DNA of 64,000 bases from contig CAVSWO010000002.1 of NCBI GenBank assembly GCA_963731735.1, positions 128,529-192,528 on the forward strand, read 5' to 3'. The position numbers were made by a program, and so were the translations under genes. A model generated the notes under the pieces. The model was not told the DNA's origin, did no database searches, and saw nothing but the letters and a program-made list of their open reading frames with translations. This DNA comes from Candidatus Kerfeldbacteria bacterium. GTDB taxonomy: Bacteria; Patescibacteriota; Patescibacteriia; SBBC01; CAIJZX01. The stretch's first letter is position 1; the number at the start of each line of letters is the position of its first letter. Below are positions 23,383 to 64,000 of this stretch, one piece after another.

Positions 23383-23511
23383 GTATTTTCGGGTTGGCGG
23401 GACACATAGGTTAGGTACCACCGCCTGAGGGGTATTGTAAGGCTTTTTCAGCTATTTTTCCAGAGGGCAAAATGAGGCATGTGGGTCGGGGTCTGAAATT
23501 CAAAATGAGAC

Positions 23512-44399: not shown

Positions 44400-44442
44400 C
44401 AGGTTAGCAACCTGCCGCTTTCAACCGCTCAGCCACCTCTCC
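44349..44442 (-). tRNA. tRNA-Ser (anticodon GCT), type II, CCA encoded
   Basis: Minus strand GGAGAGGTGGCTGAGCGGTTGAAAGCGGCAGGTTGCTAACCTG...GAGTTCGAATCTCTCCCTCTCCGCCA; anticodon arm CAGGT-TGCTAAC-ACCTG. Confidence 0.85.
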
Positions 44443-44475
44443 CCGTTTCTGTTGACGATATGTAAAACTGACTTT

Positions 44476-44552
44476 TGGTGCGCCCGACAGGATTCGAACC
44501 TATGACCTTCAGCTCCGCAAGCTGACGCTCTATCCAACTGAGCTACGGGCGC
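44476..44552 (-). tRNA. tRNA-Arg; anticodon reads GCG as sequenced
   Basis: Minus strand GCGCCCGTAGCTCAGTTGGATAGAGCGTCAGCTTGCGGAGCTGAAGGTCATAGGTTCGAATCCTGTCGGGCGCACCA. Arg-type D-arm; anticodon arm TCAGC-TTGCGGA-GCTGA. Confidence 0.75.
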
Positions 44553-46652: not shown

Positions 46653-49600
46653 TCAGTTTTGCCGCGGCGCGGTCACCGGTCCCGGCGTGGGAGAAACTTT
46701 CGAGAGCGTACAAATTTTATCATAGTTTGCTTTTGTCCCGAGGACATACCCGATCCCCTGATTTTGTAATTGTTGTAATCGGGCGGCCGAGGCATCCTTG
46801 ATTTTAATGTCTTCGCCCTGACAATAGCGCGTGGCATTACCTGGTCCAAGATAATATCCAAAGGCGGTATAAATTAAATTACGGTTGACGCAGGACGTCT
46901 GGGAAATTTTGGCTAAGTACAGGGCGGCCATCCGGACTTGTGTTTCCAGGTGCGCGTCCAGCCAATCCCGGCAGCTTTTGATCAGCGTATTGGTGGCCGT
47001 ATCTACGTTGTTCGATTCCGGACACGCAGACGGCAACGAACCATTGACCTGCTTGAGGAGCGGAAGCATGGTGCCCACCACAAATTGGCCTATGCCATAG
47101 GCGGTAGTGGCCGCCCGGCCGTCGGCGCCTTTGACCTCGGTGCCGGTGGAAAGCGGATAACCATCGCTCGTTTTTTTACTTTCTTGCATAATAATTGCCT
47201 TGACCAGGAAACGGTCGACTTTGTAGTCACCTGCCGCATCATTGATCCAACGGTTAAGGCCAGACTGGCAGGCTGGACTAACTTTATTGGCGCAAGCCTG
47301 ATCCGGGTCGCCACGCAGCGTCGTTGCCGCGCAAGCCGGCCACTCGCCGACTTGTTTGGCAACTTGTACATTGAGTTCAAACAACTTCTGATCAACCGTG
47401 GCAATCGTTAAACCCTGAAATTTCGTCAATTGCGGATTGATGAGGTTCAGGAGTACCACCGACACCAAGGCCAGAATCACACCGATTATGGCATTATTGA
47501 TGATGTCGCGGGCGTCATTAATCCGTCCCGCGTTCCCGGCTGCGGTGACCCAGCGAATCCCGCCGTAGACCACCATCACGGTTGCCAAGATTCCTACCAC
47601 CCAGATGAATAAGATAAACACCGCCTGAATATATTGGGCGACTGACTCGCCGCTAATTGGTCCGCCCAGAAACCCGGGGAGCGGCACTTCCGGCACGAAT
47701 TGGACAGATTTATCAGCCGAGCTCGGGCTCGATCCGGTGCCTCCGCTGCTGGTGCGGGTGGAGCTTGAACTGGAAACAGCGCTGGCTCCGTTGGTGGTGA
47801 TCGAAATCGGCTGACTGGTAGTCTGATTACCGGCCGCGTCCTGTGCTCGAGCCGTTAATTGGTGGGTGCCGGCCGCCACCGAAGAACTGTCCCAGGATAA
47901 ACTAAAGGGCGAGACCGTACTGGCCCCGATCTGGGTGGTGTCAAGAAAATAGTCGACCCGGGTCACGCCGGTATCATCACTGGCGGCCACCGCGATACTA
48001 ATCTGGCCTTGGACGCTGGTTTGGGTGGCGGGTGAGGTAATCGTCACGCTTGGCGCTTGCGTATCGTTCGTGCAAGCCTGCGTCAGGGCCGGACGGCTGT
48101 TGTTCGTTCCGCAACCATTGGCGTCCGTACAGGTACGTGACTGCTGTCCATTCTGACAGACCGACCAGGCGCTACACTGCCAATTCTCGGTACAGGCGCT
48201 TGGCGGAGGCGGCGGCGCGGCCGCGCTTGGGTCGGCACCGATGTTGGTGCCGTTGCTACCGGCGCCGATAGCCGGCGAACCAGCCTGCAAGGACAAATCA
48301 TAAGTAGCGGCATTTACAAATAGCGGATCGCCTTCAATCGAATTGGCCTGCTCACCACTCAGAGTCTTCCAACCGGCCAACGAGGCGGCGGCGCCGAAAC
48401 TGACACTCCCGTTTCGTTTGTGGTAGAGATTATGATGGGCGGTAAATCCGGTATAGTCGTTGGTATTGTCGATGCTGTTACCGAGTGAACTGACAATATT
48501 GTTCGTCCACACCGTATTAGCGGCTCCTGAAACATCAAAGGTGACGCCGGAACCGTTAGAAGCTTGGTTGTAAAACGTATTGTGGTCATAGGTATTTTTC
48601 GGTTGGAGGTGCGAACCGGTCGGAGAGTTTGAATACAAAATATTGTTGGAAAAAACATTATTCTGGGCAATCGCTTGGATCCAGAGCGCTTTCCCATTAT
48701 CGGCAATGATCGTATTTCCGCGGAAGGTATTATTCGAAGGAAAACCCTTGAAGGCCGCTCCTTCGTTGCCAGAAACCATGGTCAAACCACCGCGTTGGTC
48801 ATTGACCGCATGATTCACGTGAATGGTATTGTTGGTGAAAGTCCCGCCCGTCCAGCCGTCACGAATCAGGAAACCAGTGGCCTGTCCGGTGGCAATCACT
48901 AGATTATTGTCAAACACATCGTTCGTGCTGCAAGCCAAATAGACGGTCAGCGGATTGTCCGTCAGCGTGTCGATGGTATTGGTAATCGTATTGCCGGTCA
49001 CCACGCGTCCCGAAGCAGGACAGGGATGCGTCGCGTCCCCATAATTATGAAAGTCAATAAAGCGACTGGCTGATCCCGTGATGGTGTTATTTTCCAGGTG
49101 GAAATTGAGCGCCTGGTTCCACCAGGCACACGTGGCGTCGTCAATACATCCCCCGTTGGTATTATCCGAGATTACCCCGCCGTTAATCGTGTTCCCGCGA
49201 ACCGTGATACTATCACCGCCGTAGTTTCCAAACTCTCCAAAGGTGGCGTTGGCAAAGGTGATGTCCGAGTTGTTATCTCCGTAGTTTCGAACCCCGTTAG
49301 AGCTGGAAAAATTGCTGATCTGAATTGTATGATACGGGCCCGATCCGTAATCGGCGACCTCGACCGCATCTCCCCCAGTGGCCGTGATGGTTTTTCCGTT
49401 GCCATCGAAGGTGACGTTGCTAGCGCGAATTGAAAAACACGTACCGGACGATGAAACGTTGTTTTCCAGCCGATAGCTCCCCGCGTTCGTTATTGTTTGA
49501 CAACCGGTGAGACTTATGACCGTTTGGGCATCGGTCAGGGATGCGAACACGGCAAGCAACGCGACCACGCCCAAACCAAATACCCAGGCCGACGTTCGCC

Positions 49601-49673
49601 AGGCAGACCGGCGTTTACCGGAGCGCAATTTTTTGGATTGTGCCGGTGTTTGCATCCACAAAATAGAGGGCAT
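46653..49673 (-). CDS. Large T4SS-associated cell-wall protein: signal peptide, right-handed beta-helix repeats, Ig-like domains, pilin-like two-helix membrane module, C-terminal lytic transglycosylase (VirB1/SLT-like)
   Basis: 1006-aa intact ORF. PbH1-type repeats (GNTI..N.I..N). SLT motifs IIMQESKKTS and AYGIGQF in the last 250 aa. Hydrophobic hairpin FILFIWVVGILATVMVVYGGIRWVTAAGN...IIGVILALVSVVLLNLI. Confidence 0.65.
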   Translation of the reverse strand: MPSILWMQTPAQSKKLRSGKRRSAWRTSAWVFGLGVVALLAVFASLTDAQTVISLTGCQTITNAGSYRLENNVSSSGTCFSIRASNVTFDGNGKTITATGGDAVEVADYGSGPYHTIQISNFSSSNGVRNYGDNNSDITFANATFGEFGNYGGDSITVRGNTINGGVISDNTNGGCIDDATCAWWNQALNFHLENNTITGSASRFIDFHNYGDATHPCPASGRVVTGNTITNTIDTLTDNPLTVYLACSTNDVFDNNLVIATGQATGFLIRDGWTGGTFTNNTIHVNHAVNDQRGGLTMVSGNEGAAFKGFPSNNTFRGNTIIADNGKALWIQAIAQNNVFSNNILYSNSPTGSHLQPKNTYDHNTFYNQASNGSGVTFDVSGAANTVWTNNIVSSLGNSIDNTNDYTGFTAHHNLYHKRNGSVSFGAAASLAGWKTLSGEQANSIEGDPLFVNAATYDLSLQAGSPAIGAGSNGTNIGADPSAAAPPPPPSACTENWQCSAWSVCQNGQQSRTCTDANGCGTNNSRPALTQACTNDTQAPSVTITSPATQTSVQGQISIAVAASDDTGVTRVDYFLDTTQIGASTVSPFSLSWDSSSVAAGTHQLTARAQDAAGNQTTSQPISITTNGASAVSSSSSTRTSSGGTGSSPSSADKSVQFVPEVPLPGFLGGPISGESVAQYIQAVFILFIWVVGILATVMVVYGGIRWVTAAGNAGRINDARDIINNAIIGVILALVSVVLLNLINPQLTKFQGLTIATVDQKLFELNVQVAKQVGEWPACAATTLRGDPDQACANKVSPACQSGLNRWINDAAGDYKVDRFLVKAIIMQESKKTSDGYPLSTGTEVKGADGRAATTAYGIGQFVVGTMLPLLKQVNGSLPSACPESNNVDTATNTLIKSCRDWLDAHLETQVRMAALYLAKISQTSCVNRNLIYTAFGYYLGPGNATRYCQGEDIKIKDASAARLQQLQNQGIGYVLGTKANYDKICTLSKVSPTPGPVTAPRQN

Positions 49674-50865
49674 CTTCGGTTGGGGTTAGGCGCAATTGGG
49701 TCGCGCTGTAGCGCTGATTGAGGTTCTGATCAACCGGCCGGGCTACAATTTCCGAGCTACCACGCAATAAATCAATTTTGTAAATATTGTCCGGAATTCC
49801 AGTCGCCAAAGACGGTTGCGGGCCCGAACCCGGATCAAGGTAATACGGCACAGCACAAAAGACATCCACGCCGCTGGCTGAAAAGACGCATTTGTCGGCC
49901 GTAGTGTTTAGCCCCAAATCCACCAGTCCGCTGCCGATTGATTCCGGTGAAGCATTCATGATGTATAAATGCGGGATTTCATCGGTGGTCGGACCGTAGG
50001 CGCTATACAGCAGCTTGCGTCCGTCCGGTGACCACTTTGGATCAAAGCCCCGACCCTGGATCGTGGCGGACGGAAAGTTTTCGCCGTTCGCCCCTAAAAA
50101 GATGATTTCAGATAATTGATCGCTGGTACTTTTTTCATAGGTTGCAATTATCTGGTTATTCGGTGACCACAGCGGCGTAACTTTATCCGCGTTCGATCCC
50201 AAGTGTTCGACCGCCTGCGATTGTGATCCATCAGGTTTCGAAACCATCAGCCACTGATCATCGGTGTTGCCCGGATTTAAATACTTTGAGACCACCTGAT
50301 CAGACTGCGCGGAAAACGAAAAGTCGTTTAATTCATTCGGGAGCGTGGTTTGTTTATCCTGCGTGAAATCATAGAGAATTTTCGCGCCGTCCGGAAAACT
50401 GATTATGGCCTGGCTGCCATCAGCCGACCAATCGACGTTTTGAACATCTTTATAGGTCGCGTCCGAGAGCGGCGTAGTCGTTAAGCCATCGGCGCTGAGC
50501 ATGAAGAATTTACCGCTGGTCGCGTCGTAAAACCGAAAATCATTTGAAGTAGTCGAGACCAGTTGCTCCGAGGTAGTGTCGACCACGGTCTGGCTCAAGG
50601 TCGCGCCGCCGTTCGCCACCGCGTCGGGTTGGGTTTGCCCCTGTAAGCCATTTACAATCGGCAAGGCGTTGACGTTGCTGGGCGTTTGGCCGTTGATGTT
50701 GCCATTGTTCACGTTCGGCAGTCCATTCACCACCACGCCGTTCGCGTTATTGACTGGCGTGGTCGGCGTCGAACGGAAAAAGACTAGCCAAATCACGTAG
50801 AAAATAGCTAGCACCACCACCACGAAGGCGGAAATCAACAGTATTCTACGAAGCGTGGGATTCAT
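49615..50865 (-). CDS. Membrane-anchored TolB-like beta-propeller protein
   Basis: 416 aa; N-terminal TM, Asn/Gly-rich linker, PD40-type repeats (WSPDGRKLLYSA, WSADGSQAIISF). Confidence 0.5.
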   Translation of the reverse strand: MNPTLRRILLISAFVVVVLAIFYVIWLVFFRSTPTTPVNNANGVVVNGLPNVNNGNINGQTPSNVNALPIVNGLQGQTQPDAVANGGATLSQTVVDTTSEQLVSTTSNDFRFYDATSGKFFMLSADGLTTTPLSDATYKDVQNVDWSADGSQAIISFPDGAKILYDFTQDKQTTLPNELNDFSFSAQSDQVVSKYLNPGNTDDQWLMVSKPDGSQSQAVEHLGSNADKVTPLWSPNNQIIATYEKSTSDQLSEIIFLGANGENFPSATIQGRGFDPKWSPDGRKLLYSAYGPTTDEIPHLYIMNASPESIGSGLVDLGLNTTADKCVFSASGVDVFCAVPYYLDPGSGPQPSLATGIPDNIYKIDLLRGSSEIVARPVDQNLNQRYSATQLRLTPTEDALYFVDANTGTIQKIALR

Positions 50866-51938
50866 ATACCGTATTGGGTAGGTGACAAGTCATAGGTTTT
50901 ACAAAGAGTTCGTGGGCCCAGCAATTGACATTGATCGCCAAATCCCGCGAGAGCACAATATGCATTTGAACCACACGTGTCCTTCGTCCCATAGACGGGC
51001 GCATCTCCAAGGTTAACGACTTTCCCACAATCCAGGTTGCTATCAAAGAAAAGTTGGAATTGTGGGGTGCCAGCCTTGATGCATATAGCTACATTACTGA
51101 AAACCTGATCCGTTCCGTTGGTAGGAACACAGTTGCCGGTGTAACGCCCAGTTATATTACAGACTTTTCCCGCAACTGGACAGCTCACGCCCAGACATGG
51201 GTTCCCCTTCCCGTCATCGCTGAGCGAACCACAACTGGTGGTATCTGTACAAGCCGGGAGTGTATTTGGATCAAGCGGAACTTGATTACATGTCCCCTCC
51301 CATTCATTGCTCAAGTCCTTGGCACTATAGCTGTAGCAAGTATTCGTATCTTTGAGTTGGCAGCAGATACCTTTGACGATGTTGGCGGCACACGACGGTT
51401 TCCCCGGATTAACCAGGGTTTTGGCCCCTCCGTAACAGGCACCCGACGAAACCTGCGTCATGCCGGTTGGGCAGGTCAGATTTTCAAAACATTTGTAGGC
51501 ATCATTGTACGTCGCAAATCCGGGTTTTACTTGTTGGGCTTGCTTGATCTCCGGTAACCCCAAGCTTGTGAATTGCGGACTAATTAAGTTCAACAGCACG
51601 ACCGAGACCAGTGCAATAATTATCCCGATGATCGCATTATTAATAATATCGCGCGCTTGCGCGACTTGGCCGGGATTGCCGCTGGCGGTAACCCAACGAA
51701 TGCCGCCGAAGATAACCATCACGGTCGCAATGATGCCAACCACCCAGACAAAGTACGTGTAAATTACTTTGACGTAGGTGCCGATAAAATCATCATTCAC
51801 TTCCTGCGGTCCGGTAAATCCCGGCAGACTGACTTCGGGAGTAAAGGTGACGCCGCTGGACGTGGTAGCCGCCACGGCTGGCGTCACGGCTGTCAGCCCC
51901 GCTCCAACCATCAGCAAACTAAACAAGAGCCGCTTCAT
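50862..51938 (-). CDS. Secreted/membrane protein with pilin-like two-helix module and Cys-rich C-terminal domain
   Basis: 358 aa; signal peptide; module VTFTPEVSLPGF...FVWVVGIIATVMVIFGGIRWVTASGNPGQVAQARDIINNAIIGIIIALVSVVLLNLISPQF is homologous to the module in the 1006-aa protein. Confidence 0.6.
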   Translation of the reverse strand: MKRLLFSLLMVGAGLTAVTPAVAATTSSGVTFTPEVSLPGFTGPQEVNDDFIGTYVKVIYTYFVWVVGIIATVMVIFGGIRWVTASGNPGQVAQARDIINNAIIGIIIALVSVVLLNLISPQFTSLGLPEIKQAQQVKPGFATYNDAYKCFENLTCPTGMTQVSSGACYGGAKTLVNPGKPSCAANIVKGICCQLKDTNTCYSYSAKDLSNEWEGTCNQVPLDPNTLPACTDTTSCGSLSDDGKGNPCLGVSCPVAGKVCNITGRYTGNCVPTNGTDQVFSNVAICIKAGTPQFQLFFDSNLDCGKVVNLGDAPVYGTKDTCGSNAYCALAGFGDQCQLLGPRTLCKTYDLSPTQYGI

Positions 51939-52624
51939 TGGGTTAAGAGTGATCCAAAGCTCTTGAGTAAGTCCGCTAGCGCACCTAATCCCAGTTGGGC
52001 AAAATCAAGCGGATGGAATATGAAGTACAAAATGAAAATGATCAGACCCCAAAGAATGCCGGTAATGAGGCTAATAAACACAACTTTGCTGGTCCGGTAG
52101 ACCGCCTCCGCCGCCGAAAAGCTTGGCACGAGCGGCACGTGCAAATCGCGCGCGGCATCCATGCCCGGCGGCAAGGGAACGTTCGACGGAACGCCGATTT
52201 GGCTGATACCGTTTAGCCAGTGGCCGCCCACCCAGCGGATCAGAAAAAGCGCGATGACCACTGGTCCAATGACTATTGATAAAAGTCCAAAAAATTGAAA
52301 CGAGAGATCCTCGACCACCTCGTGGACCGTCTGCCAGGCCCGACGCCAGGCTTGGAGTGCGATTTGGTTGGCTTCCGCCACTGCCGTTTCCGGATTGAGT
52401 GACAGGCCTTTCCGCCGTACGCTTTGCAGCGCTCGCAGTCGGGCTGCCCGTTGGAGACGATTGCCTTCACCCGGCGCACTCAACGCCTCTGGTTGCTCGG
52501 CCAAGGTTCCTGGCACCGGCTGGCCGGATCGCTGAGCATCAAATCGCTCCTGCCGGGCTCGATTTAGTCGGTAGGCGCGATCGGCTTGGATATTGGCGCG
52601 TTCAACTGCGGTAGCTTCGGCCAT
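51935..52624 (-). CDS. Hypothetical membrane protein in the T4SS cluster
   Basis: 229 aa; basic/Ala-rich N-terminal region, then 3-4 TM helices. Confidence 0.45.
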   Translation of the reverse strand: MAEATAVERANIQADRAYRLNRARQERFDAQRSGQPVPGTLAEQPEALSAPGEGNRLQRAARLRALQSVRRKGLSLNPETAVAEANQIALQAWRRAWQTVHEVVEDLSFQFFGLLSIVIGPVVIALFLIRWVGGHWLNGISQIGVPSNVPLPPGMDAARDLHVPLVPSFSAAEAVYRTSKVVFISLITGILWGLIIFILYFIFHPLDFAQLGLGALADLLKSFGSLLTQ

Positions 52625-52627
52625 AAT

Positions 52628-53185
52628 TTATGTTGCTTCCCACGACGCCGCGTTAATTTTCCATTCGTCGCTCTGTTTGACTAGGTCCAGAAAGAGTTTT
52701 TGGGTCTTGACGGTTTCATCAGTCCCAGTGGTTTCAACCCGTTGCGTGTCGACGGTCACGGCCGCGTTGCCAGATGTTTGATTGGTAATCGAAATCACAA
52801 TCACTTTAGTGGTCAGGGCGTGATAGGGCGTGATAGTTTGGTTGATCCGACCCTGGGAAATAGTTCGATCAAGAAAGCTGTTAAAGTTACTGGTCCCCCA
52901 GTTTTTACTGGCTTCCAAGTTGGCGAAATTATTTTGGTTGCTTTCGTTGCCGTACTCTTCGGTAAAGTTTCGAGCCACGTATCGAATCGCCACCGCGTCC
53001 GGATCTTCCGCTTGGTTGGTGTTCAGATTGGTATTTATGACTTCCACGTTGGCTGAGTTCGTGTTGGCAATTTTTTCGACCGCGTTCTGAAGGCTTGGAT
53101 TACGATCCACGAGAAATAACACGATGATAGCCGGAATAATGAGTACGGCCAGCGCGATTGAGATAATCAGAAGTCGACGTGACAT
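52628..53185 (-). CDS. Membrane-anchored protein, possibly VirB8/PrgL-like
   Basis: 185 aa; N-terminal TM followed by a soluble domain; sits immediately downstream of VirB4. Assignment is by position and topology only. Confidence 0.35.
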   Translation of the reverse strand: MSRRLLIISIALAVLIIPAIIVLFLVDRNPSLQNAVEKIANTNSANVEVINTNLNTNQAEDPDAVAIRYVARNFTEEYGNESNQNNFANLEASKNWGTSNFNSFLDRTISQGRINQTITPYHALTTKVIVISITNQTSGNAAVTVDTQRVETTGTDETVKTQKLFLDLVKQSDEWKINAASWEAT

Positions 53186-53188
53186 AAA

Positions 53189-55135
53189 TTAGGCGTTAAT
53201 ATCTTCCGGACTCGAGACGGCCGTACCAACATTGGTGGCCGTTCCGCTGGCAATTGATTGCTCAAACTCCTTTTTCGAACGCTCAATTTCAAGCAATTGG
53301 GCGGGGTTGGTAGTCACGATTTGGTCCTCACTGTACGATGCCACGACTTTGATGGCCGCGTGTTTTGGTCCGGCGAAGAAGATACCTTCGCCGACTCCGG
53401 CTTCAAGCAGCAGGTAGCGCTCTTGTTGAGTCAACAGGAAGGTCTTGGCGACGATATCAATTGAAGCCGGCGACTGTTTCATCAACAACGTTAGGGCTGA
53501 GTTGTTGATAATGGCTTGTCCGTACGGCGACAGTAAGAAGTCATTGACGTCCTGGGTGATGGTCGTCACGCCCAGGTAATATTTACGCGAACGTTTGACC
53601 AGGCCGAAAATAAACTTGGCCGAGTCTTCGTGCTGCATTAACCACCAGGCTTCATCAATCACCAGGATACGTTTTTTGAGACTCGAACGCGCCACGTTCC
53701 AGATGTAGCTGACCACAATCGAAATCCCGACCGGCCGTAATTCATCTTCCAGATCTCGGACCGAGAACACTACCAGCTGGTTCGTCAATTCGACGTTGGT
53801 CGGACTGTTAAACAAACCGGCGAAGGTTCCTTGGGTAAACTTTTTTAAACGCTCCGCCATCCGTTCTCCACCCGTCATGCCGCCCAGCACTTCTTCAAAA
53901 TCCGACATCACCGGCACTTCAATATTCTGGAGATCGGCATCGGGGGTAATATCTTTCTTGGCATATGTTTCCAGCAGCGCCCGATCCAGGATTGAATCTT
54001 CCTCGTGGGTCATGTCACCCAGCATCAACCGGAACATAGATTTCAACGTGATGACCGCCGAGCGAATAATATCGGCCGTACTTTCGTCGCTGCTAATGGG
54101 TTTCGGCAGATCGAAGGGATTAATTTTACTATCTGAATTGAGTGAAATGTTAATATAGGTGCCGCCGACCGCGTCCGACAGATATTTATATTCGTGCTCC
54201 GGGTCAATAATGATGATGTCCGTTCCGAACATCATGCTGCGCAAAATTTCCAGCTTGACTGCGTAGGATTTACCGGAGCCGGCCGTCGCAAAGACGGTAT
54301 AATTCGCGTTCTGGAGCGAGAATCGATCAAATAGAATCAGCGAGTTATTGTGTCGGTTAATCCCATATAAAATGCCGTTGTCGCTCGACAGGTCGGCGGA
54401 CACAAACGGGAAACTCGAGGCGATCGGCGACGAATTCATATTGAAGGTCACCTGGAGTTGGTCCATGCCAATCGGCAAGGTTGAGGCGTATCCTTGTTCG
54501 GTTTGGAAGAAGGCGCGTTTCGAATATACCAGTTTCGAGCCGAATAAGGCTTCAACTTGGCTGGTTACTTCATCCAATTGCTTCTGCGTATCGGCGTACA
54601 GCGTGACATACAACGCGAATTGGAAAAATTTCTCCGTGCCCTGGGTTAAATCATCGCGCAGTTTTTCAATGTCGCGGAGGGCCGTTTCGCGCACCGGATC
54701 GCGCGGCGCGCCTTTTTGAATATCGGCTGAGAGCTGGGCTTCCAGCGCGCCAACTTTGTTCTTGAGTTGCTTTAAGATCAAATCCGAGGGGATCGGATAG
54801 AAAAACATGGATATATCCAGCGGGGCGTTAAAGTTGATGATCGGCGCAAACCAGCCGACCGCGATATACCGCGGATAGGTCACGACAAATAATGTTCGCA
54901 GGAATTGGCCGTTCAGGCGCAGGGTATTCGGATCAACCTTGAGTGCCGCCGGTGCGATCAGGTCACGGACCGTAACCACTCCGCGACGATAAATCCGCTC
55001 GGCTTCAATTAGTTCTTTTTCATCGGCCGGGTGCGGAAGCTCGCGACGCGGTGATTGCCGGTCGTCCTGGAAAATTTTCGGGCTCGAAAGGTTGATATCA
55101 GGCATTGCGGTCGTCTCCTTTAGATTTTTCATCAT
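53189..55135 (-). CDS. VirB4/TrbE/PrgJ-family T4SS ATPase, C-terminal ATPase portion
   Basis: 648 aa; Walker A FATAGSGKSYAV, Walker B VIDEAWWLM. Confidence 0.75.
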   Translation of the reverse strand: MMKNLKETTAMPDINLSSPKIFQDDRQSPRRELPHPADEKELIEAERIYRRGVVTVRDLIAPAALKVDPNTLRLNGQFLRTLFVVTYPRYIAVGWFAPIINFNAPLDISMFFYPIPSDLILKQLKNKVGALEAQLSADIQKGAPRDPVRETALRDIEKLRDDLTQGTEKFFQFALYVTLYADTQKQLDEVTSQVEALFGSKLVYSKRAFFQTEQGYASTLPIGMDQLQVTFNMNSSPIASSFPFVSADLSSDNGILYGINRHNNSLILFDRFSLQNANYTVFATAGSGKSYAVKLEILRSMMFGTDIIIIDPEHEYKYLSDAVGGTYINISLNSDSKINPFDLPKPISSDESTADIIRSAVITLKSMFRLMLGDMTHEEDSILDRALLETYAKKDITPDADLQNIEVPVMSDFEEVLGGMTGGERMAERLKKFTQGTFAGLFNSPTNVELTNQLVVFSVRDLEDELRPVGISIVVSYIWNVARSSLKKRILVIDEAWWLMQHEDSAKFIFGLVKRSRKYYLGVTTITQDVNDFLLSPYGQAIINNSALTLLMKQSPASIDIVAKTFLLTQQERYLLLEAGVGEGIFFAGPKHAAIKVVASYSEDQIVTTNPAQLLEIERSKKEFEQSIASGTATNVGTAVSSPEDINA

Positions 55136-55847
55136 CCTTCAAACTTGATACTTCTTCGAGTGACATGGCTTTGACTGACTGCAGTTTTTGCTGGCGCGAA
55201 GTTTCCGGATTGTATGAATTGTAATACAACTCGATCAAACTTTGGGTATCGAGAATAATTGATTTGAGCCCGGCCGAATCCAGGGCATTCATAGTTCCAT
55301 CCACCCGTTTATACAGTTCCCGCCGGTAATCTTCGAATTGTTTTTGCTTGAGGTGAATTGTTGACGTCGGTGAAAAAACGTCAATCACTTTTGAAAAGAA
55401 TTTCGCCGGCCGGTCGATTTTCGGTGAATACGGAATCACCAGGTAAAAACGCTTGGTCATAATATCGGCAATTTGGACCAGTTCGCCCACAAATTGTCGA
55501 TAGTCCTGGGTTTGCATCCGCAGGAGTTCGTTGGTTTGTTTCTTCTCAACATCCTTGAGTTGGTCCAAGTAGGCGTCAATATCGAGTCGGCGCGATTGGA
55601 CGACAATTTGGAGCGGAAAATCAATGGTGTTTAAGAATTGGGTATAGGCGCCAATCACCGCGTCCTGCTCTTCTTCGGATTTGAGCGAGAAGTTAATTGA
55701 GGACACCAGCAACACAGCCCGCAAAGTTCCGTCGCGCAGCACCACCGTATCATCCCGAATTTCCAAAATATCAAGATACTGCTGCGTCGAGGGAGCCGAT
55801 TTTGTCCGGCGGGTAGTCTTTTCCTTTTTGGTGTCCTGGTCGGCCAT
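55098..55847 (-). CDS. VirB4 N-terminal domain as a separate ORF (start taken at Met MADQD...)
   Basis: DGTLRAVLLVSSINFSLKSEEEQDAVIGAYTQFLNTIDFPLQIVVQS resembles the VirB4 N-terminal region. It overlaps the ATPase ORF by 38 nt in another frame. Confidence 0.5.
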   Translation of the reverse strand: MADQDTKKEKTTRRTKSAPSTQQYLDILEIRDDTVVLRDGTLRAVLLVSSINFSLKSEEEQDAVIGAYTQFLNTIDFPLQIVVQSRRLDIDAYLDQLKDVEKKQTNELLRMQTQDYRQFVGELVQIADIMTKRFYLVIPYSPKIDRPAKFFSKVIDVFSPTSTIHLKQKQFEDYRRELYKRVDGTMNALDSAGLKSIILDTQSLIELYYNSYNPETSRQQKLQSVKAMSLEEVSSLKDDEKSKGDDRNA

Positions 55848-55851
55848 GGGC

Positions 55852-56352
55852 TTATCGGTTATCGAATGGATTGGCTGGTTCGGGTTGTTTTGGAAGCGAT
55901 TGGCCCCAATACAACAATTCTTCGTCTTCATGATAGGCGCCGCCGGTATCGACCAGCAATGATAATTGCGCCAACTTCGTTTCGCTTAAGGGTTGCTTAG
56001 AAGGAATTGGAGGCGGTGGCGGCGGTTCACGTCGATACTGAATTCGTTCGCCCAATTGATTGTTCCACAGGCGGAGGCGCGGATTCTTGAGTGATTGCAA
56101 AAGATTCAGCAGGAACAAATGGAATGGCCGGCCGTTTACCCGAACAAACGCGAATGAAACCATGGCCACTAAAATCCCAAACCCGGTAAATAGGAATGGT
56201 CCGGTTTGATTGGCCAGGCGAACCATCAGTTGATACGACCCGACCAAAAGCCCGACACCGACTAAAATGATGATAAACTGCCGAACCGTGACCGGACCGA
56301 TCACTTTGTCTTCGACTTCGATAAATTGTGGGACGACGTATTGTTGGGGCAT
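55852..56352 (-). CDS. Small two-TM protein, VirB3/PrgI-like
   Basis: 166 aa; two hydrophobic helices (FIIILVGVGLLVGSY, FLFTGFGILVAMVSFAFV); immediately upstream of VirB4, as in Gram-positive T4SS loci. Confidence 0.4.
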   Translation of the reverse strand: MPQQYVVPQFIEVEDKVIGPVTVRQFIIILVGVGLLVGSYQLMVRLANQTGPFLFTGFGILVAMVSFAFVRVNGRPFHLFLLNLLQSLKNPRLRLWNNQLGERIQYRREPPPPPPIPSKQPLSETKLAQLSLLVDTGGAYHEDEELLYWGQSLPKQPEPANPFDNR

Positions 56353-56356
56353 GGTA

Positions 56357-57250
56357 TTAGGCGTGCACGCGACGATTTAAGTCAGCCAGCGAAGCAAATT
56401 CATGTTCGGATAAATAGGGTTGATTGTCTTTAGCGCGGCGACGAATAACTTCACTGATCGGGATGTTGTCATCAAGACTTTGTCGTCCCATGGCCAAGTA
56501 CAGTTGATAGACTGAGCTTTGACGCCAACCCGCAACCGCTTCCGCCCAGAGTCGAAACGATTCGTGTTTGAGATGCTCAAATGTTTCAAAGAGGTGTTTG
56601 GTTGAATCAGTGGCGCCTTGACCCAGGCGTCGAAATTCAGCCACCGACATGCTTTTGAGTTCTTCGGCCGGACCCAGTGTCCGGGATGGTTGGGTGATGT
56701 CGGCAACTTTGGGTCGATCGCTCCCCCGACTCCGTGGCCAGGACGGACTTGACTTGACCGTTGGCGGCGGTTGTTGCGGCACGGGCTTAGCCGGTGGCGG
56801 GGCCGGGATATCCGGCGGCCGCACGATCGGCCGGCTAGGTCGCGGCGCTTCAGTCACCGACGGCATCGGTGACTTGGGCGGAGTTTGATCGGTCGACGGG
56901 AATACTCGCGTGAGCGGCGGTTTCGGCGCCGGGTGTTCAGCTTGGACAGTCGGAACTTTGGGGGGCGGCGGGGCCGGAATCGGTTCGGGCTTGGCTACCA
57001 TACCGCGACTCTTGAGCTGCTTGGCCTGTTCGGTCAGGCTGGCCACGACCTGCTCGGCCAAATCGCGATCTAAACCGAGGCCGCCAATTTTCGGATCACG
57101 CGCCATGACGTCAATTGTTTGGTCAGACGTCCGAATATCTTTCAATCGGCTTTTGAAAATCGCGTGCGCCCGCTTCGTTAAAAATTCATCCGGAAAAGCG
57201 AGTTGGTGCTGCTGAATGATTTGCTCAGCAATCGCATCGAGATCCTTGGG
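56357..57250 (-). CDS. C-terminal domain of a proline-rich T4SS-cluster protein (reading frame upstream of about 57250 is unreliable)
   Basis: ORF 56357..57535. Protein-like sequence (DLDAIAEQIIQQHQLAFPDEF...) only in the 3' two-thirds; the 5' part is an Arg-rich out-of-frame reading of a Pro-rich tract. Confidence 0.4.
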   Translation of the reverse strand, partial: PKDLDAIAEQIIQQHQLAFPDEFLTKRAHAIFKSRLKDIRTSDQTIDVMARDPKIGGLGLDRDLAEQVVASLTEQAKQLKSRGMVAKPEPIPAPPPPKVPTVQAEHPAPKPPLTRVFPSTDQTPPKSPMPSVTEAPRPSRPIVRPPDIPAPPPAKPVPQQPPPTVKSSPSWPRSRGSDRPKVADITQPSRTLGPAEELKSMSVAEFRRLGQGATDSTKHLFETFEHLKHESFRLWAEAVAGWRQSSVYQLYLAMGRQSLDDNIPISEVIRRRAKDNQPYLSEHEFASLADLNRRVHA

Positions 57251-57501
57251 AGCCTGCGTTGCTGTCGCTAAATGTTGTAAGTTTTTTGGCTTGGGCTTCA
57301 ATTTCTTTGGCGTCTTCTTCTGAATATGCCTGGGTCGGGGCTTTGGCGCCAATCGGGGCTTCCGGGGTGGCCATCGCCGGAACTTTCGGCGGCGGGGGTA
57401 GTGGCGGTGAGCTCGCAACGGATTGGGGCGGCGGGGTCGGTTTGATTTTTGGGGCGGCGGGAACCGTCGGTGTCTGGACTGGTTGCGATTGTCCGAGTGG
57501 T

Positions 57502-57909
57502 TTAAGCTTCGGCGCGACGGTCGGTTTTTTGGCAATTGGCAAGTTCGGTGGTGCCGCGGGACGCGGCGGATTGTTGACGGCGCTGGGAGGCGTTACTTTT
57601 GTGGCCGCCCCGGCTGGCGGCTCGAGATTTTTCGCCTAAATATTCGCTGACCTGGCCGAATACGCTTTTGCGAAGCTCAGCGACGACGGCGTCCGCCTGC
57701 GGCGGGGCAAGTTCAGCCTCGCGTTGGATTGCTTCAGACAGCGTCGCCAGCGGAATTTCCTTCACCATCACTCGCATTACAAAACCGGCCACGTCGAGTT
57801 GCGGGTAGGTTGCCTCAAGCTTGTCAACGGCCGCTAAGGCTCTCGAGGAAGCGACGGTATCGCGAATCGAACGGGGCAACTGATGAAATTGTTGCCAAAT
57901 ATCAGCCAT
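57502..57909 (-). CDS. N-terminal domain ORF of the same proline-rich protein (probably one gene split by frameshifts in the Pro-rich linker)
   Basis: 135 aa; MADIWQQFHQLPRSIRD.... It is followed by overlapping ORF 57225..57542, which encodes a plausible Pro-rich linker (PKLKPLGQSQPVQTPTVPAAPKIKPTPPP). Confidence 0.4.
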   Translation of the reverse strand: MADIWQQFHQLPRSIRDTVASSRALAAVDKLEATYPQLDVAGFVMRVMVKEIPLATLSEAIQREAELAPPQADAVVAELRKSVFGQVSEYLGEKSRAASRGGHKSNASQRRQQSAASRGTTELANCQKTDRRAEA

Positions 57910-58083
57910 CTCGTTAGCGTTTTGGAGAATAAGAAAAAATGCCCAGCGATAAAATCACCGGGGTTGGGAATTTCTTGGGAAAACTTTGATATTCAATCTC
58001 TAACGAGAACATGAAGTGTTTGTTTGAGTGGATTTATTATAGCACAAACCCACCCGGACCGCAAAGCCTGAAAGTGGAAAAAA

Positions 58084-58377
58084 TTACTGGAAATATTGCT
58101 GGATTCGCTCGCTTTCGGCTTCGACCGTCGAACCATCATATTCCCCCGCATGACGCGATGTGCCGGAATAAGAGGGTTGTTTCTGGTCGAGGTGGAGATT
58201 CAGACGAACCCTTTCCCCTTCCTCCTGGAGATAGACATGAAATCGCGGGTAGGCGTAGCTGCTCAGCCGACGAACGTACGAAATATCTCCGGATCGCGGA
58301 TCACGTATCATTGAATAACCCGCCCGTTGGAGTGTCAGGCGGGCTGGTTGAGCCAAGCGGCGAAGGCGCAGGATCAC
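58084..58377 (-). CDS. Small hypothetical protein
   Basis: 97 aa; protein-like composition (YPRFHVYLQEEGERVRLNLHLDQKQPSYSG...); overlaps the upstream gene by 4 nt. Confidence 0.4.
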   Translation of the reverse strand: MILRLRRLAQPARLTLQRAGYSMIRDPRSGDISYVRRLSSYAYPRFHVYLQEEGERVRLNLHLDQKQPSYSGTSRHAGEYDGSTVEAESERIQQYFQ

Positions 58378-59108
58378 GCCGGCAGCTGGTCAGTTTGTTT
58401 GAGGATGCGCCGAATCTTCCGTTTGAGCGCGTTGAGTTCAAACGGGTTGAGATCTTGGGTATTGACGGCATAACTAACGGCATCCAGGTCCTGCATTAGA
58501 CGCTCGCCATCAGGCTGCAGCAATTCACCGCTTTTCATGGCTGCTTCGACTTGGCTGGATAATCCGGTTAAACGGAGGAGGATGTCAGCCTTGCCGCGTA
58601 GGGTCGCAGCCTTGGTATCAAAGTCACGGAGCAACGGATGCGCATCTTCATCGAAGGCGACCGATGGTTCTATTGAATCCGCCGTGGCTGCTGCCGCAGC
58701 TGCGTTCGGTTCAGGTTGCGGGGCATAGACTTCCGGAAAGTTTTTTTGGGCTTCAGCTAAGGCCGCGACCGGGTCTCCGCCCAGGTTCTTGATCGTTGAT
58801 TGAATGTCACCCAGGTACCATTCCATTGGCAGCATGATCCGGCTTAAAATTTCACGCGTTAAGTTTTTTGCGTGATCAGTATCAGTATGAAGTTCATTTT
58901 GAATCTGTGTTTGTAATTGTTCGGGAGTAAATTCTTGCGCCACCAAGCTGGCTTCCAACCGGACCATCTTACGTTGCTGATCATCACTTAGTTTGTACTG
59001 CTTGCTAAGCGCTATGTTTATATCAGACAACTCTCGGTGGGCCAGCACTTCCTTTAAGAGCGGGGGAAATTCGAGATAGAGTTTGTAGTAAGCTTTTGGA
59101 CTGACCAT
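58374..59108 (-). CDS. Hypothetical protein in the T4SS cluster
   Basis: 244 aa; mostly alpha-helical-looking; starts 2 nt after the TrbL-like gene stop. Confidence 0.45.
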   Translation of the reverse strand: MVSPKAYYKLYLEFPPLLKEVLAHRELSDINIALSKQYKLSDDQQRKMVRLEASLVAQEFTPEQLQTQIQNELHTDTDHAKNLTREILSRIMLPMEWYLGDIQSTIKNLGGDPVAALAEAQKNFPEVYAPQPEPNAAAAAATADSIEPSVAFDEDAHPLLRDFDTKAATLRGKADILLRLTGLSSQVEAAMKSGELLQPDGERLMQDLDAVSYAVNTQDLNPFELNALKRKIRRILKQTDQLPA

Positions 59109-59109
59109 A

Positions 59110-61893
59110 TTATGCTAAGTTTGCGGTATTAGGATTCATCGCATAAACACGATAGAGCCGTGGATTGGTTCGTAGCAGGGTTTGAACCGCATCTCGGGCC
59201 AGTTGAAATCGACGAGCTCCCAACTCAGGCATTTCTTTTTCCCGAAGCGCCTCCCCAACCGTTTGGTCAATAAAGGCTTTGTTTTGTTGATAGACTTGGC
59301 CTTGATCAAGTCGTCCCAGCTGTTCACCTTTCGCTGCGGCAATGGTATCACGAAAGGCGGCCTGCCCGGCAACATCGCCAAAATCAAAGTCTTTATGTTC
59401 ACCGCGCGAGATGAGTAGTCGGGCACCCATAGCTTTGTGAAGATCGTCTGGGTTAACTAGGCCTCCGTATGTCGCCTGTAACCCATTGACAACGGCATCG
59501 CGCATTGCAGCATTCCGCTCGCCAGCTTTGACTATATTGCTTCGGCGAAAGTTTCTGTTTTGCAAAGCGGCTGTCATAAAATCAGCATCAGCGGCCACTG
59601 ATTCAGTCATCACGTCCGCCATCTTATCAGCATTGCGGGAAAGATATTCGTTAAGTGCCTGAGTCATAATGTTGTTTGCATCCCGAAATGCCCGGTGCGT
59701 GGCTCCGGTTGCATTCGCGAACTTCTGACGATCTTCAAAATCAACATTATCCAAAACGACATGATTATAGAGCTGATCTCGCATTTGTTCGGATAAGTCT
59801 TGTCCTGCTTTATCTGCCATTCCTTGCCGAATGTACATGTTCGCAATTTGTTGGCCAAGCTCATCTCCAGCCGCTCCGTTGCGAACCTGTAAATGTCGGC
59901 TTTTCAATATCGATTTGCTTGCTGCTTCGCGTTCAACTGCAGCCACAAAACTTGCCGTATCGGCTTGCGTCGCAAAGTCATTGTGGAACGCAGAAATCGA
60001 CATGTCTCCCATGTGTTTGTACATGGTTTTCAAGAACTGCTCCTCACGGTCAGGGCCCATCTGTCGTGCCACGTCACGAATCGCTTGGGCTTCAGCTACA
60101 TTTTGGACATGTCCGCGGTTAGCCAACTCTTCTCCCGATTCCATCCGCATCGATAATGGTGCGGTATTATTCATAGCCATGTCACGGAGCGTATCATTTG
60201 TCGTTTCTGGCCGTTTAACTGCTTTCGCCAACGAACTGGACAGTTTGGTTCGGACATCAGGATTGCTATCCCAAGCTTTGATCGTCCGGCTAACCACGTC
60301 TCGATTTGTAAGATCATTCAAATCAATTTTTCCGGATTGCAAGCCGACGGTCGCCGCTGCCGCTCGCGTCGCACCGCCACCCGTTCGAAGGAGGGTATTG
60401 ATTGTGCCAGCTGAAGCGTTGCTGAGGTCGCGTTCTTTAATTTCGCGATCCACGAGAGTTTCACGGAACTGCTCATATCGTCCAAGGGCTTGCCGTCGAG
60501 ATCGTGTGCCTTGTTCAAAGCCAGTTTGTGCCGCACTGTCAATGTCACGACCTGCCTCTTGGACCGTTTTTCGTCGAAGCGCTACATCGCGAACACCTCG
60601 CAAACTTGCTCCAGCTGCGCTGGTAGTGGCTGCTCGCGCGCGCCCAATTTGGCCAACTGTTCGGGCCAGGCCCGCATCAACCCGCGCGCCCAGGGCAACA
60701 CTTCGTTCGCGAACTTCAGCTTGACGGCGGGCTGAACGCTGCTGAAATACTCCTTGGATCGGCCGGATAGTCCGATCCCGTAACCAATTCACTCCGGTCG
60801 CGCCCAATCCAACCCCGACGCCAAAGGCGCCGGCCGCTTTCGCGCCATAGGTGCCGGACTGCATCGCGTACTGCAGCCCCATCACCATGAAAATAATGGC
60901 CACCAAGAACGGTAAGAAGTGATTGAGTTGCAGCGCGCCGGTTACAAATCCGAAAGTTGATCCCACCACGCCAATTTCTTGTTCATACGCGGCGCCGGCG
61001 TCACCACCGATATTGATACCGGCGTTCGGTCCGGCATTCGTTAAAATGGCAAGCGATAACCACAAAATAAACGCGATGACCGGCCCAACCGTCACGTATC
61101 GCCCAAATTCGGACCACCACTTCCGGGCGTACCCTTCGGTATTCGGCAGGATCCGCAAGGCGTAGGCCAATGGTGATAAGATGACTAAAATCCAGAGGGC
61201 CACGATCCGAACGGTCAAGATAACCGCAAAAGCCAAGGTCACAATCAAGGCGGTGACCATCAGCGCCAACCCGGCTAGTAGGCTGACGAAGATGCTACTA
61301 AAGGCAATGCCATTCCCGCCGGAAGAGACTGATGTTTGTGAAAAATTCAGAATCTCATTCAGTCCAAACAGCGACGCAAAATTTCCGAATAAGGCGTCTT
61401 TGTAGGAATTCACAAAGGTTAACATCACCACCTGTGAGGTTTGGATGAAGAAGCCGGCGATCAGGCGCGAGAAGTTGACCAGGAAAGCCATGATGATCAG
61501 CCGGGCCAGCAGCCGATTGTAGCGGTAGTTTTCGATCCGCAGGACCGTGCCGACCGCGATAATCAGCAGCGTGACGATAAAGAACATGTTGGTAATATCG
61601 CGCACGATTGACCAGCCGGTCACCACAATTGGAACATTAATGAAGTTATTGTGCAGCGACAGAATCACGATGACGTGTGTTGCGACCGCCGTCAGGTACC
61701 CGACAGTTTGAATCACTAGGAACACCAAGTTAGCCATTATTTGCGACAACTTGTTTAAGACCGCTGACTGATCGCCGGCCGCGTAGGTGACTGAACCGGC
61801 CAAAAACAATCCCGCGATAACCGCCAGCACCGTATAGGCGCGTGAATATCGGCTGAGATGGTGCGTCAGGCGTCGTAACATATTACTCAACAT
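59110..61893 (-). CDS. VirB6/TrbL-like polytopic membrane protein with long hydrophilic C-terminal extension
   Basis: 927 aa; about 8 TM helices in the first 400 aa, then a charged, Ala/Arg-rich 500-aa tail. Confidence 0.5.
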   Translation of the reverse strand: MLSNMLRRLTHHLSRYSRAYTVLAVIAGLFLAGSVTYAAGDQSAVLNKLSQIMANLVFLVIQTVGYLTAVATHVIVILSLHNNFINVPIVVTGWSIVRDITNMFFIVTLLIIAVGTVLRIENYRYNRLLARLIIMAFLVNFSRLIAGFFIQTSQVVMLTFVNSYKDALFGNFASLFGLNEILNFSQTSVSSGGNGIAFSSIFVSLLAGLALMVTALIVTLAFAVILTVRIVALWILVILSPLAYALRILPNTEGYARKWWSEFGRYVTVGPVIAFILWLSLAILTNAGPNAGINIGGDAGAAYEQEIGVVGSTFGFVTGALQLNHFLPFLVAIIFMVMGLQYAMQSGTYGAKAAGAFGVGVGLGATGVNWLRDRTIRPIQGVFQQRSARRQAEVRERSVALGARVDAGLARTVGQIGRARAATTSAAGASLRGVRDVALRRKTVQEAGRDIDSAAQTGFEQGTRSRRQALGRYEQFRETLVDREIKERDLSNASAGTINTLLRTGGGATRAAAATVGLQSGKIDLNDLTNRDVVSRTIKAWDSNPDVRTKLSSSLAKAVKRPETTNDTLRDMAMNNTAPLSMRMESGEELANRGHVQNVAEAQAIRDVARQMGPDREEQFLKTMYKHMGDMSISAFHNDFATQADTASFVAAVEREAASKSILKSRHLQVRNGAAGDELGQQIANMYIRQGMADKAGQDLSEQMRDQLYNHVVLDNVDFEDRQKFANATGATHRAFRDANNIMTQALNEYLSRNADKMADVMTESVAADADFMTAALQNRNFRRSNIVKAGERNAAMRDAVVNGLQATYGGLVNPDDLHKAMGARLLISRGEHKDFDFGDVAGQAAFRDTIAAAKGEQLGRLDQGQVYQQNKAFIDQTVGEALREKEMPELGARRFQLARDAVQTLLRTNPRLYRVYAMNPNTANLA

Positions 61894-63070
61894 GAACGGT
61901 TAGTCCCGAATCAATCCACTGACTAGAGTCTAAGGAATTCGTTCCACCGGACGCCTCGCTCGCCCATCCCCAGTTATCCTTGATCTGGATCTTGATATGG
62001 TAATCACATTCCGTGGCTCCGGTTCCGCCTCGGTGACAGTCAGTCGCACCCGGTTTAATCGTGTAGGCATGACTAAAGATGTGCGGGTTGCTCGGATCAG
62101 TTCGTGGCGCGTACGGGAAGTTAAAGCTATCCACCGTATCGCCCCAATTAATCGCAATTGACTGCAATGGCACCTGCTCCGCATCGGCTTTCGAGTTGAA
62201 TTTAATGGTCACCAAACCGCTACCACCTGAAACATTCAGTGTGTCGTCAGTGCTGTTCAGGAATAAGGCTTTCCGGTCAATTTTCCCATCATTGTTGACA
62301 TCGACACCGCAAATTTGCTCTCCCGCTTTATTTTTCAAACTTGGGTCACAGAAGAAGTCCGGCGGAATGGCGCAATAATCGTTCGGATATTGGGGATCGC
62401 GCTTCGGTGGATCGCCCGCGCAAACTTGAGTCGGCGGTTCCCAACCCGCACCGGAGACCAGCACGTAATTTGAACCATCCCAGCGCCAAATTCCACGGGA
62501 AGCCGGGAACAGTCGTCGAAGTCGTTCCTGGGCGAAATATTGGTTGGTGGTTGGATCATTTGGATCCGAGGTTTGCAATCCGGCGGTGTAGGATTGTGTT
62601 CCGCGGTTACTGGCGGCCGGAGAAGCAACGCCGACACACTGCCCGTCCGGATTTCCGTCGCCGTCATTATCGCGTTGGCATTGATTTACCTTGGTCATAT
62701 CGAGATTTCCGAGCGAATTCAAACAGCTCGAACCGTCCGTGGTACAGGCGATATCGCCACACGGCCCGTCACATGAGTACGGCGTCCCGCCTCGGGCTTG
62801 TGTCGCGCCGCTAAATTGCGAAACGTTTTTGACTTCGACTGACATCAATGGCCAGGTGGCAGGATTATTCGGGAAGCCATCCGGTTGCAGAAGACCACCG
62901 TACGGAGCCAAGTCTTGACTCCGGGTGTAACCAAGCGTCGGAACCGTATACGAATCCGAATTGACGCGTTGGGCATAGGCTTGATTATCACCGTTCGGCG
63001 AGACTACTTCAACAATGTCCTGGCAGGATTCTTTCACGAAGAATTGTACTTTATAGGTCAGCGCCTTCAT
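61883..63070 (-). CDS. Secreted Cys-rich protein
   Basis: 395 aa; many paired Cys, Asp/Gly/Asn-rich (DNDGDGNPDG) calcium-binding-like loops. Confidence 0.45.
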   Translation of the reverse strand: MKALTYKVQFFVKESCQDIVEVVSPNGDNQAYAQRVNSDSYTVPTLGYTRSQDLAPYGGLLQPDGFPNNPATWPLMSVEVKNVSQFSGATQARGGTPYSCDGPCGDIACTTDGSSCLNSLGNLDMTKVNQCQRDNDGDGNPDGQCVGVASPAASNRGTQSYTAGLQTSDPNDPTTNQYFAQERLRRLFPASRGIWRWDGSNYVLVSGAGWEPPTQVCAGDPPKRDPQYPNDYCAIPPDFFCDPSLKNKAGEQICGVDVNNDGKIDRKALFLNSTDDTLNVSGGSGLVTIKFNSKADAEQVPLQSIAINWGDTVDSFNFPYAPRTDPSNPHIFSHAYTIKPGATDCHRGGTGATECDYHIKIQIKDNWGWASEASGGTNSLDSSQWIDSGLTVHVE

Positions 63071-63160
63071 AGACGGTTGAGCCAGTCTGAATCATTAACC
63101 TATTGAGTCCATAGCAACTGAAATTCACCAGTTGCCTTGTCAAAGAGATTCGAATGCGCG

Positions 63161-63978: not shown

Positions 63979-64000
63979 AATCGCAAAACGTGTGTATCCG

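Follow-up and report, generated by a model that had tools for sequence, protein, structure and literature searches.

Is a cluster of type IV secretion system (T4SS) genes in which neither a relaxase nor a coupling protein is visible a mobile element, or does it belong to the chromosome of its host? This question is raised by a stretch of 64,000 nucleotides (hereafter the window) from a Candidatus Kerfeldbacteria genome, contig CAVSWO010000002.1, in which a single compact run of minus-strand genes extends from 46653 to at least 64000, the window end. Our analysis indicates, with a probability of about 0.85, that the cluster is the relaxase-less chromosomal T4SS already published for Patescibacteria, a system thought to connect cells to hosts and not to move mobile DNA. 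The open reading frames (ORFs) were compared with the profiles of Pfam and NCBIfam, and the genes of the cluster and the two neighbors that matter for the argument are as follows.

46653-49673, minus strand: 1006-aa fusion protein with a signal/anchor, a beta-helix, a Big_7 domain, a VirB2-like pilin hairpin, and an SLT-like domain
49615-50865, minus strand: membrane-anchored PD40/TolB-like beta-propeller protein, 416 aa (PD40, E 2.6e-5)
50862-51938, minus strand: pilin-hairpin protein with a signal peptide, 358 aa (T4SS_pilin PF18895, E 3e-10)
51935-52624, minus strand: membrane protein with transmembrane (TM) segments, 229 aa, with homologues in relatives L003, L004, L006, L008, and L011
52628-53185, minus strand: candidate PrgL/VirB8-like (NTF2-like) bitopic protein with an N-terminal TM segment, 185 aa
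53189-55135, minus strand: VirB4-type ATPase, C-terminal two thirds (P-loop_TraG, E 1.5e-27; conju_CD1110)
55098-55931, minus strand: TrsD-like protein (homologue of the VirB4 N-terminal domain), ORF of 277 aa, likely start 55847
55852-56352, minus strand: PrgI/VirB3-like small membrane protein (PrgI PF12666, E 2.1e-10)
56363-57909, minus strand: conserved protein of ~515 aa with three small helical domains, Pro-rich linkers, and no TM segment
58084-58377, minus strand: conserved protein, 97 aa, 52-62% identical to same-position ORFs in relatives L003, L006, L007, and L011
58374-59108, minus strand: soluble protein, 244 aa, which lies beside VirB6 in close relatives too
59110-61893, minus strand: extended VirB6/TrbL-like polytopic membrane protein, 927 aa, assigned via homologues
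61883-64000, minus strand: 3' part of a giant Cys-rich surface-protein gene (~1,500 aa in relatives)
44636-46651, plus strand: recG (RecG_wedge, DEAD, and Helicase_C matches), convergent with the cluster and 1 nt from its end
21894-22544, opposite strand to the cluster: ComF-like gene (weak Pribosyltran match, just under the cutoff)

No integrase, relaxase, or VirD4/FtsK-type family was found with Pfam among the window ORFs scanned, namely the cluster ORFs of at least 85 aa and the long non-nested ORFs of at least 120 aa elsewhere in the window, in agreement with the original prediction for this DNA. Five Pfam-annotated relatives contained no mobility genes, a direct-repeat search detected no flanking repeats, only tRNA-like similarities, and the IMG/VR viral contigs contained no relatives of the cluster. 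The window end (64000) falls inside the operon, and the absences read from the sequence cover the 64-kb window. The base composition of the cluster is that of the core genome. We searched GTDB, with one genome per species, using the VirB6-like protein and obtained 484 relatives (best match 37% identical); all of the VirB6-like homologues found were from Patescibacteria, and the gene order is kept in the best 80 of the 484 relatives' loci, which are Patescibacteria loci. In three relatives, the genes around recG are LemA, an M48 peptidase, ClpB, and a ComF-like gene, followed by RecG convergent with and adjacent to the cluster, and the window shares this LemA-M48-ClpB-ComF...RecG order. RadA is located between recG and the cluster in one relative (L086) and downstream of the cluster in 12 distant loci, and the flanks in more distant relatives are ATP synthase, KsgA, and RadA. 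The original prediction had proposed a comparison of synteny as a check, and the same housekeeping context recurs, which speaks for a place in the chromosomal core. The identities of VirB4 and RecG in six genomes were 87/57, 84/51, 81/50, 79/50, 80/49, and 77/46%, respectively. VirB4 identity therefore tracks RecG identity, and this sequence comparison fits vertical inheritance of the cluster under strong constraint. From the conserved flanks, the lack of mobility genes and repeats, and the core-like composition, we conclude, as had been proposed originally, that this is a chromosomal T4SS in the style of the candidate phyla radiation and not a classical conjugative element; the cluster is not an integrative and conjugative element (ICE).

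The variable DNA at this place is not the T4SS but a stretch of ~21 kb between the comF-like gene and recG (window 23000-44600). It is located between a tRNA-Ser gene (23164-23253) and tRNA-Ser/tRNA-Arg genes (44349-44552), with partial tRNA-Ser-like repeats at 23049-23089 and 23365-23389. Patches of low GC (0.43-0.47) occur in it, and its genes encode an Opp-like ABC transporter, an oxidoreductase, a racemase, and two-component proteins. Relatives lack this stretch, and in them the distance from the comF-like gene to recG is only 2-4 kb. The stretch may be an acquired island.

The arrangement of the cluster corresponds closely to a published one. In a survey of 3,035 Patescibacteria genomes by Quinonero-Coronel et al. 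(2025, PMC12102498), the Patescibacteria VirB4 proteins form a monophyletic clade nested in MPF_FATA, the genes near virB4 encode TrsD, PrgI/VirB3, VirB6, and PF18895 pilins, VirB8 homologues are almost confined to ABY1, the ABY1 T4SS is linked to comF, recG, and radA, and any relaxase is present in only 103 of the 3,035 genomes. The cluster described here and the ABY1 system share VirB4, a separate TrsD, PrgI/VirB3, VirB6, PF18895 pilins, and a candidate VirB8-like protein, as well as the chromosomal location, the lack of a nearby relaxase, and the link to comF and recG (to radA in relatives); nothing essential differs. The terminal gene is unusually long here, with beta-helix and immunoglobulin (Ig) domains ahead of the pilin-SLT part, and the ~21 kb between comF and recG are extra. 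The parts of that paper that were read make no mention of giant upstream genes, two paralogous soluble proteins, or the 97-aa ORF. Since the make-up, the lack of a relaxase, and the recG/comF neighborhood were published in 2025, the locus brings no new principle, and the interpretation given in the original prediction is right and already published. The small additions, which are the pilin-domain fusions, the giant operon genes, the VirB6 solenoid tail, and the paralogous soluble proteins, are leads and not findings. The T4SS of Patescibacteria is treated as established in a 2025 review (PMC12857230) and in a preprint (bioRxiv 10.64898/2026.06.21.733656).

The VirB4-type ATPase scored 356 bits against the NCBIfam profile conju_CD1110 (cutoff 325) over profile positions 175-729 of 752, and both Walker A (283-290) and Walker B (490-497) are intact. 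Its likely true start is at 55105, where ATGCCTGA overlaps the upstream stop codon, which gives a protein of 638 aa, the length also called for the gene in relative L001. It is 63-87% identical to the VirB4 of 51 Patescibacteria loci (pairwise identity), whereas plasmid VirB4 proteins are 27-35% identical (at most 35.5%), the nearest being VirB4/TraE of Firmicutes and Actinobacteria. The original prediction had a single VirB4 gene; the identity of the ATPase stands, but its N-terminal domain is encoded by a separate TrsD-like ORF (55098-55931). The product of this ORF aligned with positions 91-253 of the Mbov_0397 VirB4 profile (E 2.5e-11) and also matched TrsD NF041427 (E 1.2e-5). Thirty of the 45 members of the TrsD-like family match the N-terminal part of TraC_F_IV, and the TrsD-like proteins of relatives carry PF26593 (TraC-like); a PDB sequence search with the family gave nothing useful. 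A sequencing artefact as the origin of the split was ruled out, because the two ORFs are separate in all 51 related loci that have both. In relative L074 (16058-20005), the VirB4 ORF has 1315 aa, compared with ~640 aa elsewhere; its homology to the window protein is interrupted by a long insert, possibly an intein.

These features agree with those of the MPF_FATA systems, for which the comparison set was TraC-TraD-TraE of pIP501/pGO1, PrgI-PrgJ-PrgL of pCF10, CD1110 of a Clostridioides difficile conjugative transposon, and Mbov_0395/0397 of a Mycoplasma ICE. VirB4 exceeds the CD1110 cutoff, the gene immediately before VirB4 is TrsD/TraD-like, there is a PrgI-like protein and a candidate PrgL-like one, and a pilin-like protein matches the Mbov_0395 family. 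However, the cluster has no relaxase, coupling protein, or context of an origin of transfer, is chromosomal and vertically inherited, and has VirB2-like pilins, which are normally absent from Gram-positive systems. Very probably, the system was derived from the monoderm MPF_FATA conjugation machinery with loss of the link to a relaxase.

The proteins of the putative membrane platform are identified with different degrees of certainty. The VirB3-like protein that had been predicted has the PrgI match given above and two or three TM segments, and is present in 50 related loci. Pfam did not match the 927-aa VirB6-like protein itself, but the original assignment is supported through homologues: TrbL PF04610, the sole family matched, was hit by 7 of 33 aligned homologues, and some Patescibacteria VirB6-like homologues carry PF04610 or PF19590. 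An AlphaFold 2 model computed with the alignment had a mean predicted local distance difference test (pLDDT) score of 80.5, and of more than 90 in the C-terminal domain; residues 1-345 are predicted to form a TM bundle and residues ~480-927 an all-alpha solenoid (encoded by 59110-60450), with which Foldseek found only generic HEAT/ARM repeats. After the last TM helix comes an Arg-rich segment, a hint that the solenoid domain is cytoplasmic. The "possible VirB8-like" protein of the original prediction stays as a candidate, now graded as weak. Its family is present in 45 related loci, and in a comparison of the profile of the soluble domain with PDB, PrgL (7aed) ranked first (E 0.018) and a designed NTF2 protein second. 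Weak matches to NTF2_YvbJ or VirB8 were obtained for a few members of the family, and a single-sequence AlphaFold 2 model was unusable (pLDDT 49.8). The 185-aa protein is thus only weakly indicated to be the VirB8/PrgL-like component.

Two pilin-like module proteins had been predicted, and both contain PF18895 (50862-51938 and 46653-49673). The two pilin modules are 59% identical, and neither is a small free pilin. The 358-aa protein, which also matches the Mbov_0395 pilin-like family (E 1.8e-5), ends in a Cys-rich domain, in which 20 of 228 residues are Cys. In the 1006-aa protein, the N-terminal signal/anchor is followed by a right-handed beta-helix (~224-393; Beta_helix, E 4e-6), a Big_7 Ig domain (541-608; E 2.9e-18), the pilin hairpin (676-745; TM segments 677-710 and 721-750; T4SS_pilin, E 1.5e-7), and a region similar to SLT lytic transglycosylases (~810-946). 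The latter contains the SLT motifs ES, GxGQ, and YxGPGN (MQES at 829-832, YGIGQF at 859, and FGYYLGPGN at 938). In one relative, the positional homologue consists of a pilin and Peptidase_M23, and in another, whose N-terminal and pilin part is beyond the stretch read, it has an SLT match. The motifs and the SLT or M23 domains of the positional homologues support the SLT assignment, and a PDB sequence search with this region gave nothing useful. Of the VirB1-like transglycosylase that had been proposed, the SLT-like C-terminus with its motifs thus stands, with a Pfam score below the cutoff. The predicted TolB-like propeller was confirmed by its PD40 match; it has a partial TolB match (E 6.5e-9, far under the cutoff) and an N-terminal TM segment, and is kept at the equivalent position in relatives.

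The original prediction had closed the operon at 63070. However, 61883-64000 is the 3' part of a giant surface-protein gene that runs off the window. This gene is split over at least two frames (ORFs 61883-63070, 63161-63418, and 63565-63978), and tblastn with the giant proteins of relatives L006 and L004 matched 63999-63634 in frame -2 and 63067-61886 in frame -1. Directly upstream of VirB6, relatives carry three giant genes (1310-1861 aa), one of them with a Big_7 match, and there are faint hints of fn3.

Most adjacent genes of the cluster overlap (by 4 or 8 nt, for example) or are separated by a few bases, and the sole sizeable intergenic gap is one of 174 nt (57910-58083); a scan for promoters and terminators gave counts that were not above those of shuffled sequence. 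The parts named in the original prediction were all recovered at the expected places on the minus strand (ORF list, Pfam, and NCBIfam), and its statement that the cluster directly follows recG is borne out by the convergent recG that ends 1 nt away. Its gene list had omitted the conserved 97-aa ORF (58084-58377), which has no Pfam match, and had taken 56357-57535 and 57502-57909 as two ORFs, which are one gene broken by two 1-nt insertions. Neither Pfam nor NCBIfam matched the 229-aa protein, whose position is kept in close relatives, or the 244-aa protein, and Pfam did not match the ~515-aa protein. The N-terminal ~95 aa of the latter two proteins are paralogous domains, aligned by hhalign with a probability of 96.5% (E 9e-10).

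In 25 of 27 relatives, one uninterrupted ORF of 410-630 aa corresponds to the ~515-aa gene, but tblastn showed that the gene reads in three frames in the window. The frames change at 1-nt insertions at 57625 and 57278, and an A-run lies no more than two bases from one of the two. In Logan contig L088 (run ERR11594398), which matches 5.9 kb of the window at 99.8% identity, the gene is unbroken and encodes 515 aa. Judging from this contig and from single-base insertions of which one is beside a homopolymer run, consensus errors in the assembly are the likeliest cause of the frame breaks. Elsewhere in the window, a solute-binding protein gene (28867-30238) is split into two ORFs, and the ATPase domain of a histidine kinase (38231-39196) is in an ORF apart from the sensor part. 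Together with the breaks at 57625/57278, these split genes suggest indel errors in the assembly.

The ComF and type IV pilus genes that had been noted in the same window were both found, the ComF-like gene at the position listed above and the pilus genes as follows.

781-2535: PilB
2817-3479: PilO-like
4361-5425: PilM

Directly upstream of PilM/PilO/PilB and on the same strand are seven large ORFs (5615-16490, minus strand; 1412, 312, 289, 521, 295, 552, and 306 aa) with almost no Pfam matches, which may encode pilus-associated or surface proteins. A LOOT RNA motif (Rfam RF03000; 76.5 bits against a gathering score of 46.4) was found at 43390-43511 on the plus strand, shortly before an ORF (43529-44122) whose 197-aa product has an NTF2-like MecA_N domain. 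A 787-aa protein (39196-41559, minus strand) combines a ThiF-family domain and a histidine kinase 7TM sensor region, and a separate HATPase ORF and two receiver-domain genes are downstream of it on the same strand.

Another of the closest known systems is the T4SS of the saccharibacterium Southlakia epibionticum (SEML1_0006-0019), which was shown to be essential for epibiotic growth by transposon sequencing (Wang et al. 2023, PMC10633639). Wang et al. remarked on the pilins and on the absence of a coupling protein and a relaxase, and suggested protein export. The two systems are alike in being of the monoderm type, with VirB2-like pilins and clusters without a recognizable relaxase or coupling protein (PMC10633639). 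However, S. epibionticum belongs to the class Saccharimonadia, its genes have another genomic context, it has an array of six small pilins in place of two hairpins fused to large domains, and no structural VirB8 homologue was reported (PMC10633639). A 2026 preprint reported T4SS-like tubes at the host interface and the uptake and use of host RNA (bioRxiv 10.64898/2026.06.21.733656). Helicobacter pylori ComB and Sulfolobales Ced, which import DNA by means of a VirB4-family ATPase and a VirB6-like channel, also have no relaxase. No homologues of the ComB outer-membrane parts VirB7, VirB9, and VirB10 were found in the cluster, and there was no family-level match to the NCBIfam profiles of CedB (35 bits, cutoff 700) or CedD (19 bits, cutoff 600).

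On this basis, the published Patescibacteria system at this locus might work as follows. VirB3, VirB6, and the VirB8-like protein would form a membrane platform, and VirB4 and TrsD would power the assembly of pilins into a short pilus or tube. The pilin hairpins would anchor extracellular beta-helix/Ig, Cys-rich, and SLT domains, and these fused domains, with the giant surface proteins, would bind and locally open an envelope, either the cell's own wall or that of the host. The channel would move macromolecules between the epibiont and the host cell, without conjugation of a mobile element. As for the cargo, import of host nucleic acid or other macromolecules is our tentative preference. Export of effector proteins is possible, and a cargo or direction other than these two is distinctly unlikely. 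Two points favor uptake of nucleic acid, namely that recG, radA, and comF are linked to the cluster and that import is the published hypothesis.

Several observations count against the identification of the cluster as a chromosomal system that does not conjugate. A relaxase or coupling protein is possible farther off in the source genome, beyond the 64-kb window, and PMC12102498 reports VirD4-like homologues in most genomes, mostly far from virB4, so that the absence of a coupling protein is limited to the locus. The SLT match of the 1006-aa protein (E 0.0056) is under the family cutoff, the VirB8-like assignment is weak (E 0.018), and the reading frame is broken in the ~515-aa gene and in the giant gene of the assembly, the first of which is intact in L088. 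The source organism is uncultured, and the proposed function is predicted from its genes. The first of these points leads to the possibility of an ordinary ICE with its relaxase, coupling protein, integrase, and attachment sites just outside the window: the window ends inside the operon, with the upstream side of the source genome unseen, tRNA genes are only 2 kb off (44349-44552), and VirB4 falls in a family named for conjugative elements. However, the same gene order and the recG/comF/ClpB flank occur in relatives whose RecG is only 46-57% identical, the flanks of distant relatives are housekeeping genes, the genes upstream in relatives encode giant surface proteins, direct repeats are lacking, and the composition is core-like; with the low frequency of relaxases in the published survey (103/3,035 genomes, PMC12102498), an ICE is highly improbable. 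Hardly credible, too, is a decaying, non-functional remnant. The ~515-aa gene in three frames, the giant gene in at least two, and other window genes that look split would be in line with decay, but single-base insertions are typical of consensus errors, the VirB4 motifs are intact, and all other genes are full length and highly conserved. A pseudogenized cluster was ruled out by the intact ~515-aa gene in the 99.8% identical contig.

Other alternatives concern what the chromosomal T4SS does. A dedicated DNA-import machine like ComB or Ced, feeding DNA to ComF, RecG, and RadA, would explain the lasting linkage of comF, recG, and radA in ABY1; recG adjoins the cluster and a comF-like gene is nearby in the window and in relatives, RadA is near the cluster in relatives, no relaxase is present, and import is what the authors of PMC12102498 favor. 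However, recG is convergent, and comF is on the other strand and 24 kb away in the window, and thus neither is co-transcribed with the cluster. In addition, CedB is matched far below its cutoff (35 against 700 bits), a type IV pilus/ComEC uptake route already exists, and S. epibionticum requires its T4SS but not ComEC (PMC10633639, PMC12857230). We consider such a machine unlikely. Somewhat doubtful is an organelle for protein export or adhesion, which would attach to the host and deliver effectors or wall hydrolases without transport of nucleic acid. The fusion of pilin hairpins to beta-helix/Ig, Cys-rich, and SLT-like domains, the giant surface proteins in the operon, the lack of a coupling protein at the locus, and the suggestion of protein export by Wang et al. 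(PMC10633639) speak for it, but no effector or secretion signal was identified, and the system descends from DNA-transfer machines. An improbable elaboration is that the ABY1 system with extra parts is an import device that pierces the host envelope and works with RecG, RadA, and ComF. The extra parts may be the VirB2-like hairpins that anchor beta-helix/Ig, Cys-rich, and hydrolase domains and the solenoid tail of VirB6; the three giant surface proteins may be the missing adhesins, and the paralogous soluble proteins a cargo receptor that replaces the coupling protein.

The identification of the cluster as the published chromosomal T4SS of Patescibacteria connects this locus with an active topic. 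The system may be the route by which these reduced bacteria draw macromolecules from their hosts, and it is essential for epibiotic growth in the sole lineage tested. The value of the locus is as a clean ABY1 example, whose unannotated conserved genes could guide structural or genetic work.

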